Source of the DNA: an uncultured Verrucomicrobiae bacterium
GTDB taxonomy: Bacteria > Verrucomicrobiota > Verrucomicrobiia > Limisphaerales > UBA11358
Direction: 5' to 3'
DNA length: 64,000 nucleotides
Assembly (NCBI GenBank): GCA_963755455.1
Contig: CAVWJH010000004.1
Span: forward strand, 18,076 to 82,075
The translations under genes and the position numbers were made by a program. Below are positions 32,354-35,871 of this stretch, in pieces. The notes under the pieces were generated by a model. The model was not told the DNA's origin, searched no databases, and saw only the letters and a list, made by a program, of their open reading frames with translations. The stretch's first letter is position 1. Each line of letters opens with the position of its first letter.

Positions 32354-32405
32354 GAATAATTCTCCATCCCCACGCAGGAGCAAACCGGGTTGCGGACGCC
32401 GAAGA
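32354..32405 (-). repeat. 52-bp displaced copy of the gcvP 3' end (other copy 32985-33036)
   Basis: 46/52 identity; FGVRNPVCSCVGMENYS* versus [18 protein letters not shown]. Confidence 0.9.
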
Positions 32406-32410
32406 AGATT

Positions 32411-32650
32411 TCAAGCGACAAGCACGCGCGCGGAAAGAATTTCATCTTCGCGCAACGGTTCGAGCGACGTTTTGGAAACGGCGGTGACGGCGATGGTGTC
32501 GCCGACCGCATTGAAAACCTCGATGGAATAACCTTCGCTGCCGTCGGGCGCGACGTGATGGTCAACAAGTTTGACGACATCGCCGCGCTTGAGCTTGTGC
32601 TCCGGCACGTCGCAGGTCAGAACCGCGTCTGTGTAGAGTTCAAATTTCAT
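32411..32650 (-). CDS. DUF4926-like small protein
   Basis: D.PEH.LKRGD...V...EGYS.EVFNA.G.TIAV pattern. Confidence 0.75.
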   Translation of the reverse strand: MKFELYTDAVLTCDVPEHKLKRGDVVKLVDHHVAPDGSEGYSIEVFNAVGDTIAVTAVSKTSLEPLREDEILSARVLVA

Positions 32651-32981
32651 GTCGTCTTTGACTTGTCTGGCAACAAGGTAACAAAGCGGACGTTGCCTTG
32701 CAAGTGCTCGCGTATCCAGATGGTTTTCACGCGCAGCGAGACGCCGTTCGGTCCGCGCAAGATTCCGCGTATCTCAAAAAGGTCGCCAAATTTTGTGAAG
32801 CCGGCAGGTGTCGCATCGAGCGGAAGAATTTGAGAACGGATGTCTTCAATCAGACGTTCCGCATCTTCGATGGAATAACCGGCCCGTGAAAGAAATTTGG
32901 ATTTGCCACCTCGCGGAAGTGGAACAAGCAAATACGCGTCAACTTCGGCAAAGCAATTTCGCTGTCGGCGGGAAGTTTCAT
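32647..32981 (-). CDS. DUF6883-like protein (frameshifted), TA-like pair with DUF4926
   Basis: KLT.YLL....GGKSKF...GY, GPNG...VKTIW, RFVTL; ATG overlaps the gcvP stop. Confidence 0.65.
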
Positions 32982-35871
32982 TCCGAATAATTCTCCATCC
33001 CCGCGCACGAGCAGACCGGATTGCGGTCGCCAAAGACGTTGTCCACGCGGCTGACGTGCGGCCAGAATTTGTATTCGTGCAAATCCTTCGCCGGAAACGC
33101 CGCCTGCTCGCGCGTGTAAGGACGATTCCAATTGTCGCTGGCGATCTGGTCCGCCGTGTGCGGCGCGTTCTTGAGCAGATTATTTTTCGCGTCGGCAGAA
33201 CCATTTTCAATCGCGGTCATTTCCGCGTGGATGGAAATCATCGCGTCGCAGAAACGGTCCAGTTCGTATTTCGATTCGCTTTCGGTCGGCTCGACCATCA
33301 GCGTGCCGGCGACGGGAAACGAAAGCGTCGGCGCGTGAAAGCCGTAATCCATCAGCCGCTTCGCCACGTCCTCGGCGGTGGTGGCTGTGGAACGCGCGCA
33401 AATCGAGAATGCATTCGTGCGCGACGAGGCCGTTGCTGCGGTAGAGCGTCGGGAAATAATTTTCCAGCCGCTTGGAAATGTAATTCGCGTTGAGGATGGC
33501 GAACTTCGTCGCCTCGGTCAGTCCGTCCGCGCCCATCATCGCGATATACATCCACGAAATCGGCAGAATGCTCGCGCTGCCCCACGGCGCGGCGCTGACG
33601 GCGCCGATCGGATTTTCGCCGCCGAGATTGACGACGTCGGATGGCCGGGCAGAAATTCCACGAGATGTTCCGCCACGCCAATCGGCCCGACGCCCGGCCC
33701 GCCGCCGCCGTGCGGAATGCAAAACGTCTTGTGCAGATTCAAATGGCAGACGTCCGCGCCGATGAAGCCGGGCGAAGTCAAGCCGACCTGCGCGTTCATG
33801 TTCGCGCCGTCCATATAAACCTGTCCGCCGTTCGCGTGAATGATTTCGCAAATCTCGCGGATGGTTTCCTCGAACACGCCGTGCGTGCTCGGATACGTCA
33901 CCATCAGGCACGACAAATCATTTTTGTGCGCCTCGGCTTTGGCGTGCAAATCGGCCACGTCAATGTTGCCGTTCGTGTCGCACGCGACGGCGACGACTTT
34001 CATTCCGGCCATGACCGCGCTGGCGGGATTCGTGCCGTGCGCGGAAGTCGGAATCAGACAGACGTTGCGATGCGCCTCGCCGCGCGATTCGTGATACGCG
34101 CGGATGACGAGCAGCCCGGCGTATTCGCCCTGCGAACCGGCGTTGGGCTGCAACGAAATTCCCGCGAAGCCGGTGATTTCCGCGAGCCAGTCTTCGAGGT
34201 TTTGAAAAAGAATCTGGTAGCCGCGCGTCTGCTTCAGCGGCGCGAACGGATGAATCTTCGCAAACTCCGGCCACGACACGGGAAACATTTCCGCCGCCGC
34301 GTTCAGCTTCATCGTGCAGGAGCCGAGCGGAATCATCGAGGCCGTGAGCGAGAGGTCGCGCGATTCGAGCCGCTTGATGTAGCGGAGCATCTCGGTTTCG
34401 GTGTGATAGCGAGTTGAAAACTTTGTGCTTCAAGAAAGTCCGAAGTCCGAAGTCCGAATGTCCGAAGTCTTTGCAGTCAAGATCGTCGACTGTGAAAGTT
34501 GAGCGGCTTGTCGCCGTTAAAAACCTGAAGAATTTCAGTCACGTCATGCGACGCTCGTGGTTTCGTCGAGCGAAATGCCGATCGTGTTGTCGTCAATGAC
34601 GCGGAAATTCATCCGATGCGCTTCGGCAATCTTCAAAATGTCGGCAGCACGTTTGTCGCCCAGAGTCAATCGCGAACGTGTCAAAGAACTTTGACTGTGG
34701 ACTTTGGACTTTGGACTGCCAACGCCGTAGCCAAGTTTCTCCAAACCCGCGGCCAGAATGCTGCGTCAGCGCATGAACGCGCTGCGCAATTCTCTTCAAC
34801 CCTTCCGGCCCGTGATAACACGGCGTAGAGCGACGCCATGTTCGCGAGCAACGCCTGCGCGGTGCAGATGTTGCTCGTGGCTTTTTCGCGGCGGATGTGC
34901 TGCTCGCGCGTGCCGAGCGCGAGGCGCAACGCCGGTTTGCCGCGCGAATCTTTGGAGACGCCGACGATGCGTCCGGGCATCTGGCGCTTGAATTCATCGC
35001 GCGTGGCGAAGAACGCCGCGTGCGGTCCGCCGTAGCCGAGCGGCACGCCGAAGCGTTGCGCGCTGCCGACGGCGATGTCCGCGCCGAATTCGCCGGGCGG
35101 CTTGATGAGCGTGAGCGCCAGCAAATCCGTCGCGACGGTGAGCATCGCGCCGGCGGCGTGGGCTTTTTCCGCGAAGCCGGAGTAATCGTGAATCGCGCCG
35201 AACGTGTCGGGATATTGCACGAGCGCGCCGAAAACTTTTTCGCTGAACTGAAAAGTTTCGTGATTGCCGACGACGACTTCAATTCCCAGCGCCTGCGCCG
35301 CGCGTGCGGACGACTTCGATGGTTTGCGGATGGCAGTTTTCCGAGACGAAGAAAACGTTTCGTGCGTCCGAGCCTTTGAGCCGGTGGGACATCGTCATCG
35401 CTTCGGCGCAGGCGGTGGCTTCGTCGAGCAGCGAGGCGTTGGCGATGTCGAGCGCGGTGAGGTCGGTGACCATCGTCTGAAAATTCAGCAGCGCTTCGAG
35501 GCGGCCTTGGGAAATCTCGGCCTGATACGGCGTGTATTGCGTGATACCAGCCGGGATTTTCCAGAACGTTGCGCTGGATGACCGGCGGCGTGATGCAATC
35601 GTAATAGCCCATGCCGATGAACGAGCGGAAAACTTTATTTTCGCGCGGCGATTTTTTTTAATTCGGCGAGCGCTTCAAATTCACTTTGCGCGGCGGGCAG
35701 GTTTAATTTTTTGTCGAGCCGGATTTTTTTCGGAACGGCGGCGTCAATCAATTCGTCCAGATTTTTGAAGCCGAGCAGCGCGAGCATTTCGTTCGCTTCA
35801 TTTGCGTTCGGGCCGATGTGGCGGCGGACAAATTGGTCGGGATGCGCCAAAAGATTTTCAGTCAAAGACAT
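32978..35871 (-). CDS. gcvP: Glycine dehydrogenase, GCS P-protein (frameshifted)
   Basis: [49 protein letters not shown]. Confidence 0.95.

Follow-up and report, generated by a model that had tools for sequence, protein, structure and literature searches.

Duplicated gene ends flank small gene cassettes behind gcvP and other core genes of an uncultured Verrucomicrobiae bacterium

Insertion with long target duplication has been described for restriction-modification genes lying between direct repeats of >30 bp, in inserts free of any further mobile element (Furuta, Abe & Kobayashi 2010, PMC2853133). In the sections of that paper used here, the repeats vary in length (45–47 bp in its Table 2, with upstream and downstream copies matching at 44/46 positions in Haemophilus) and often span a translation start or stop so that the target stays intact, mostly in competent species. 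Here we describe a scar of similar form at the 3′ end of gcvP (glycine dehydrogenase) in a 64,000-nucleotide stretch of DNA, hereafter the window, from an uncultured Verrucomicrobiae bacterium (assembly GCA_963755455.1, genome G000), in which two small genes of the DUF6883 and DUF4926 families are enclosed by two copies of the gcvP tail. Such tail duplications are enriched across the genome, and we think it rather probable that DNA from a related cell recombined into gcvP, installing a donor end together with the cargo and stranding the recipient end downstream.

Two further systems resemble these loci in part. Integron arrays are built of small, promoter-poor cassettes rich in toxin–antitoxin (TA) genes, with one repeat each, added at one end and found in varied combinations, much as here; unlike integrons, the present loci have no integron integrase and no folded attC-like site, and the repeat is the host gene’s own coding end, differing from locus to locus. 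The minimal mobile elements of Neisseria likewise lack mobility genes and are accessory genes that homologous recombination exchanges beside core genes, but they require two conserved flanking genes and leave no duplication, whereas the present loci have varying downstream neighbours, whose role as second arm the tail copy appears to take over. Homology-facilitated illegitimate recombination (HFIR) combines one long homologous anchor with a short or illegitimate join in a RecA-dependent manner and, in the sections of the two papers cited, has been proposed to drive sequential displacement in arrays of type VI secretion system and Rhs modules (PMC3240628, PMC5361080).

The gcvP scar lies on the reverse strand. 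The 3′ part of the gene (32978–33367; Pfam GcvP2_C, E=3e-35, and the list of open reading frames, ORFs) is joined upstream by frameshifted pieces reaching to about position 35871, and its working tail, the proximal repeat copy (32985–33036), closes with ENYSE and a stop, an end that may be of donor type. The TGA of gcvP overlaps the ATG of the DUF6883 gene (32647–32981; Pfam, E=4.6e-12) as ATGA, the DUF4926 gene (32411–32650; Pfam, E=1.2e-11) follows, and 5 bp after its stop the tail begins again (32354–32405), identical at 46/52 positions. This distal copy is in frame and closes with its own TAA (32350–32352), FGVRNPVCSCVGMENYS followed by a stop being among the end translations compared; the whole element (32350–32405) would represent a displaced native end and right-hand recombination arm. 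The six differences correspond to four synonymous and two non-synonymous codons, and the 572-bp insert between the 52-bp repeats, which pass our low-copy filter, matches only the two Pfam families, with no integrase inside. Re-measurement bore out what the earlier note had recorded here: 52 bp, 46/52 identity, 4/6 silent differences, a 5-bp gap and the stop/start overlap. A diversity-generating retroelement with template and variable repeats, whose differences would fall at adenines alone, was rejected, as no coding-strand A takes part in 5/6 differences. Immediately beyond the distal copy, in what sequence comparison suggests is the native downstream context, lies a repeat at 32302–32349 (no strand assigned) that we take to be REP-like (repetitive extragenic palindromic).

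DUF6883 has been placed in the BECR RNase family (BECR-Tox3), with DUF4926 as the likely immunity gene, in a preprint whose sections cited here show the same families in the same order and do not mention a tail repeat (bioRxiv 10.64898/2026.08.28.747851). From these assignments, the gcvP cargo is predicted to be an RNase toxin–immunity (toxin–antitoxin) pair, comprising a BECR-fold toxin and its immunity or antitoxin partner. Among named relatives, those nearest to the cargo protein come from Verrucomicrobiota, one of them labelled Limisphaerales. The DUF6883 ORF is intact in the relative G023 and has a one-base gap after nt ~46 in G000, which is probably an assembly error because gcvP is also in pieces there.

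Among genomes of the family, 149 have a gcvP tail match and 27 have two or more. A downstream copy of ~41–170 bp was present in 17/120 gcvP loci, a sample enriched for multi-match genomes, while 103/120 had none in the DNA examined, these empty sites being other species and not strains. The gcvP insert is thus like long target duplication in being <20 kb, in having flanking direct repeats of >30 bp that are unique in the genome, in the existence of one-copy empty sites and in the lack of another mobile element; it differs in carrying a predicted RNase toxin–immunity pair and not the restriction-modification genes that were, in the sections cited, the search criterion of that study (PMC2853133).

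The assembly of G000 (3.79 Mb in 4 contigs) is 65.6% complete, 4.5% contaminated and frameshift-rich, and the public runs matched at most 22% of words, with no read piece spanning the stretch, all of which would suit an assembly chimera of two strains, the alternative that the earlier note had set against its own reading. The same cargo and junction (a stop, a few bases, then F-G-D-R codons) nevertheless lie behind gcvP in G023, G097, G060 and G050 and on the metagenome contigs L221 and L223. Since independent assemblies of other species share cassette and junction, we regard the duplication as authentic and a chimera as effectively ruled out. The SE-stop/ATGA end of G000 recurs in G023, G088, L221 and L224, all with the same cargo, and G019 has the SE-stop end with different cargo; G054 carries a 135-bp gcvP copy, and in G088 and G080 the cargo is present with the copy reduced or gone. 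Many core genes of G000 are frameshifted (gcvP, gyrB, a glnD-like gene, recQ), indicating long-read indel errors.

To ask how often gene tails recur nearby, as the earlier note had proposed, we performed a self-BLAST of G000, which returned 8166 local repeats, 167 of which remained after filtering (28–220 bp, at least 78% identity, low copy, outside longer paralogy). Genes were called with our own hexamer model, and the counts are approximate because of the frameshift-rich assembly. A gene tail formed the upstream copy in 45/167 repeats compared with 11.1 expected from random placement, an enrichment that excludes chance as the source of the tail repeats; tails formed the downstream copy in 7/167 (9.9 expected), 21–24 repeats were mid-gene (about 60 expected), four lay at tRNA ends and 61 had no class. 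The 45 pairs represent 40 loci, perhaps 6–8 of which are paralogue, domain or rearrangement cases (e.g. L162, L170, L179, L186, L190, L193). Repeat length ranges over 28–190 bp (median 69) and cargo over 0.1–14.6 kb (median 1.2 kb), while the gap after the last cargo stop runs from −8 to 462 bp and falls within −10 to 12 bp in 19/43 pairs, compared with 7% at random cargo positions. With the gap tight yet variable, the fixed geometry of ~52 bp and 5 bp, which had been called identical at gcvP and at a second site in the window, a sigma-factor gene, was rejected; because lengths and gaps vary across the genome, its sharing by the two sites is a coincidence of two cases.

Targets, named from Pfam domains, include trpB-, uvrC-, ftsY-, thiC-, argH-, murA-, dinG-, rpoN-, glnS-, pheS-, ffh- and gltX-like genes. 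In a profile scan covering 222/267 predicted ORFs, 11/40 loci carried TA, nuclease or defence families (PIN, MazF, HicAB, ParE, Zeta, Uma2, DUF4258, DUF2442, TIR, DUF6883), and the others held hydrolases, transporters or unknown ORFs, with IS200-like TnpA at two; TA-type cargo was also seen at 10/20 hand-picked non-tail loci. A trpA-like gene on contig C2 (506553) has a 109-bp tail copy. At C4:724975–726836 (L193), a 47-bp similarity between the L24 gene end and a site after L6 brackets core ribosomal genes and may reflect chance or a replaced tract.

The same cargo can stand behind different genes. In the 30 DUF4926 loci found in the family, the cargo is followed by tail copies at gcvP, at a gltX-like gene, at a gene that we presume to be rsmE-like and at two others; at the gltX-like site of G149, the cargo is identical to that of G000 at 200/240 nt and the copy measures 135 bp. 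A strict tail copy beside the pair was detected in 5/17 Verrucomicrobiota, 0/36 Nitrospirota and 0/18 other named genomes (9/80 rows being too short, and the 17 Verrucomicrobiota likely overlapping genomes already counted), and 10/61 scorable metagenome loci were flagged, several of them in doubtful frames. As tail copies accompany the cargo only at some genes and in some lineages, the repeat belongs to locus and lineage and not to the cargo. At L037 (G085), the rsmE-like ORF runs on in frame into the final DUF6883 codons, which reads as the outcome of deletion or illegitimate joining at the cassette's proximal edge.

The proposal that the two copies are donor and recipient alleles was upheld by the pattern of mismatches and by mosaic genes in relatives. 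Across tail pairs, mismatches are distributed 56/63/118 by codon position (118/237 at third positions, p=1e-7), with non-silent codons (109) exceeding silent ones (94). At gcvP, alleles form two groups separated by 26 diagnostic sites, and in G046, G157 and G142 a body of group a is joined to an end of group B. Of the informative sites in the G046 gene, 30/33 are native as far as −103; from −84 most are donor-like, and the repeat does not begin until −7. The distal copy of G046 is donor-like at the first four sites, then mixed, and leads into a stop, next gene and downstream sequence nearly identical to those of empty-site G103. The switch to donor sequence falls near −84 to −100 in G157 and near −34 in G142; in both genomes the distal copy is mostly native, and the two copies stand ~60 nt apart without an intervening gene. 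In these three relatives the working gcvP end is thus foreign, the foreign tract starts ~30–90 bp before the repeat does, and the far copy is mostly native and has native neighbours; the suggestion that ~50 bp was the only homology used fails in 3/3 informative cases. Eight genomes without a copy likewise have a group-a body and a group-B end, showing that gcvP end-swapping is common with or without duplication. Sliding-window identity to the nearest relatives was blurred by indels.

In G000 itself, the REP-like neighbour follows the distal copy, as it does in G050, L221 and L223, and in many empty-site relatives it follows the gcvP stop, so that the distal copy fits a displaced native end. 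Among seven cassettes, distal arms differ mutually at 3–8 of 48 nt and working ends at 3–9, with differing stops and neighbours, and although the cargo of G050 shares only 57–61% identity with the rest, just two sites separate the G050 arm from the gcvP of that genome. Had the arm been a dead relic dating back to the cargo split, it would have decayed, so the distal arm appears to be renewed over time.

These results also bear on a true target duplication, in which a staggered break, perhaps made by a cargo nuclease, would copy recipient sequence on both sides, followed by mutation. Some tail pairs are 96–98% identical, as such an event would leave, and DNA double-strand breakage has been proposed for restriction-modification genes, with, in the sections cited, few cases per species, compared with ~40 tail loci in one genome here (PMC2853133). 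Neutral decay would not favour third positions, however, the working end is foreign in three relatives, the G046 copies differ at sites separating donor and recipient lineages, and most cargo is RNase-type, metabolic or absent, making this origin very improbable.

The earlier note had inferred a recurring integrase-free route to 3′ ends. Its recurrence, at 40 loci, and the absence of an integrase inside both hold, while the restriction to 3′ ends does not, as mirror duplications of 5′ ends were seen by inspection at nth-, mnmA-, trpB-, pgl- and ribB-like genes; 5′-end duplications were not statistically enriched in a lax test (20 seen, 31 expected). A trpB-like gene at C1:29660–32376 (L161, L213) carries both, a 5′-end duplication with PIN cargo and a 3′-end duplication with Uma2 cargo, and at C4:1077754–1082861 (L211), stacked mnmA-like 5′-end copies with PIN, sigma, prepilin-like and HicAB cargo form a head-type array.

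Could the repeats instead be attachment (att) sites, the attL and attR of integrative elements that bring a replacement gene end and have lost their integrase or use one in trans? At icd, e14 and phage 21 are known to supply a replacement 3′ end that carries silent changes, G000 has 20 tyrosine-recombinase matches, and IS200-like TnpA occurs in the cargo of two loci; the narrow left edge of the repeats at the sigma site, described below, would fit as well. Against this, of the recombinase matches, 19 of which could be tested by position, two lie inside tRNA-flanked repeats (2/4 such repeats) and none inside the other 163 (one of the 163 has one in its flank). No integrase was found among the 222/267 ORFs scanned, serine recombinases not being searched genome-wide. 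The ~40 targets are unrelated and share no common motif or structure: the best boundary k-mer (p=0.003 among 220 tested) was nonsignificant after correction, no hairpin marks the boundaries, the folding of tails being no stronger than that of other gene ends (−8.9 vs −9.4 kcal/mol, p=0.66), and REP-like sequence after the last copy is not in excess genome-wide (3/40 vs 71/2488, p=0.11). Repeat length varies from 41 to 170 bp at gcvP alone, 5′-end mirrors exist, and some events comprise ~60 nt without a gene. We consider att sites unlikely. An integrase-driven island at the tails was rejected as well, with no tyrosine recombinase inside the 163 non-tRNA repeats and no single attachment core among 40 unrelated tails.

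The second site in the window, on the forward strand, was confirmed too. The tail of a gene for an ECF-type (extracytoplasmic function) sigma factor (13245–13841) is duplicated at 13787–13838 and 18898–18949, with 46/52 identity and a 5-bp gap; the copies differ by two silent and four non-silent changes and enclose 5.0 kb of cargo (13928–18892), which in a profile scan comprises a WXG100 gene, two small ORFs and a 1290-aa ORF that we take to be FtsK/EssC-like. This type VII-like block was not among the recurring cassettes at the sigma loci of 20 relatives. The sigma tail has 2–6 matches in 31/109 matching genomes, and in 20 loci picked for multiple matches, 27/33 short copies start 53–64 bp before the stop. 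Each cassette has its own stop-end allele at the left and an arm of ~57 bp at the right, and six types (A–F, 74–96% identical) recur across genomes and positions in arrays of up to four. Types A, B, C, D and E each stand directly behind the sigma gene in some genome, and order conflicts between G011 (sigma-C-B) and G091 (sigma-B-A-C-D). In G000, three tail copies follow pheS (96, 90 and 86% identity) and rpoN (90, 88 and 78%), declining with distance as expected if new cassettes enter beside the gene. Arrays bounded by sigma tails also occur behind unrelated genes at L331, L334, L337 and L347 (G143, G023, G089, G076), usually ending at what is presumably an ispA-like gene; either the tails travel with cassettes or the arrays were split off by rearrangement.

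The reading we favour, recombination of related-cell DNA into the target gene, draws on what was seen directly: the duplication, the tail enrichment, the lack of an integrase inside, the spread of lengths, the recurrence of one cargo behind several genes and the mosaics in three relatives. DNA would likely arrive by natural transformation, and the first crossover would be ordinary homologous recombination in the gene body, a long anchor. At the first origin, the far end would join illegitimately, in an HFIR-like manner, 40–170 bp before the recipient stop, deleting nothing; the stranded tail would then move with the cargo as a short second arm of 50–100 bp, letting the cassette enter any relative regardless of downstream sequence. 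New cassettes would enter beside the gene, displacing older ones outward, cassettes could loop out between two tails, and deletion would trim the arm from the cargo side to the 50–60 bp still required for spread. As in HFIR, the donor tract lies in a long anchor on one side (G046, G157, G142); unlike HFIR, which in the sections cited usually involves a ~1-kb deletion and 3–10 bp of microhomology, the recipient end and neighbour are kept, 40–170 bp are duplicated and the copy appears to be reused (PMC3240628, PMC5361080).

Several points weigh against this reading. In the sections cited of the laboratory work, HFIR is rare and as a rule removes about 1 kb, and of such clones from conjugation in E. 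coli, 56/60 were duplications attributed to circles (PMC3240628). The presence of mutS in 10/10 complete genomes of the genus should hinder recombination between 10%-divergent alleles. Both comEC and dprA are present in G000, but since 10/14 control genomes match too, they do not show competence. The gcvP of G000 is group B throughout, so that diagnostic sites cannot assign its copies; the upstream tract is informative in three events, with donors represented by proxies from other species; and distal-arm variation is not significantly biased to third positions (2/5/8, p=0.09). At the sigma site, the left edge (−53 to −64 in 27/33 copies) is tighter than random joining predicts, and there is one clear order conflict, the other arrays fitting loss from a common order. 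Finally, a larger circle, one crossover and later trimming give the same picture. Loss of mismatch repair as an enabler was rejected, as mutS, although not found in the incomplete G000, is present in those 10/10 complete genomes; RecT-type annealase and Ku were not found in G000 (65.6% complete).

Small circles of tail and cargo, looped out or re-ligated from a donor fragment, might accordingly integrate by a single crossover in the tail and later be trimmed. The layout of the sigma cassettes is formally that of a circle opened within its arm, and the junction is inherited together with the cargo. Transformation delivers linear single strands, which counts against circles, and a minimal circle, unless trimming is added, cannot explain the donor sequence that precedes the repeat in G046, G157 and G142. 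No circular joint appeared in the public reads, whose runs did not contain this strain. Single crossovers of re-circularised DNA in E. coli did, in the sections cited, flank cargo with gene-end duplications without an integrase as here; these measured 109–950 bp, and donor sequence would stay within the duplicated stretch, unlike here (PMC3240628). The data exclude only the untrimmed minimal circle, for the three events, and we hold circles to be a serious, if doubtful, alternative to recombination from a long anchor.

Other repeats in the window lie near the gcvP locus or elsewhere. REP-like repeats at 31981–32013 and 32302–32349 (of CCACGGATGAACAC.../CGCAGAGACGCGGAG types) flank a truncated DUF4238 ORF (31991–32353); the former matches numerous contigs from soil and peat runs whose flanks are unrelated, which suggests a mobile repeat family. 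An IS5-like DDE transposase (29425–30450; Pfam DDE_Tnp_1, DUF772) lies 1.9 kb from the distal gcvP copy, outside the repeat, and IS200-like TnpA genes are present in G000. Imperfect ~20-bp tandem repeats with a GTGCGG core occupy an intergenic region at 58503–58709.

The scar itself is not undescribed, as the earlier note had supposed: the sections cited of the long target duplication study already report it for restriction-modification genes, including its position at start or stop codons (PMC2853133). What goes beyond that work here is cargo of TA, secretion or metabolic type or none, the donor and recipient alleles, and the stacked arrays from a shared pool. A literature search that took in neither most subscription journals nor the supplements of PMC2853133 turned up no publication on pools of tail-bounded cassettes across a genome, and this behaviour is apparently the new part. 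Tentatively, the gene ends may act as an enzyme-free, integron-like system in which an arm of ~55 bp is refreshed from the host allele at each transfer, with dozens of core genes as array heads and small genes added, stacked, reordered and dropped across the genus. Tail scars bear on how chromosomal TA and defence genes spread outside mobile elements. Such scars can be counted, and each tells which gene was the target, where the cassette begins and ends, in what order cassettes arrived and which alleles belong to donor and recipient, making the route measurable in uncultured genomes and one that could be rebuilt at the bench. If the short arm does renew itself, this would be a general integrase-free cassette system missed by island and integron finders.

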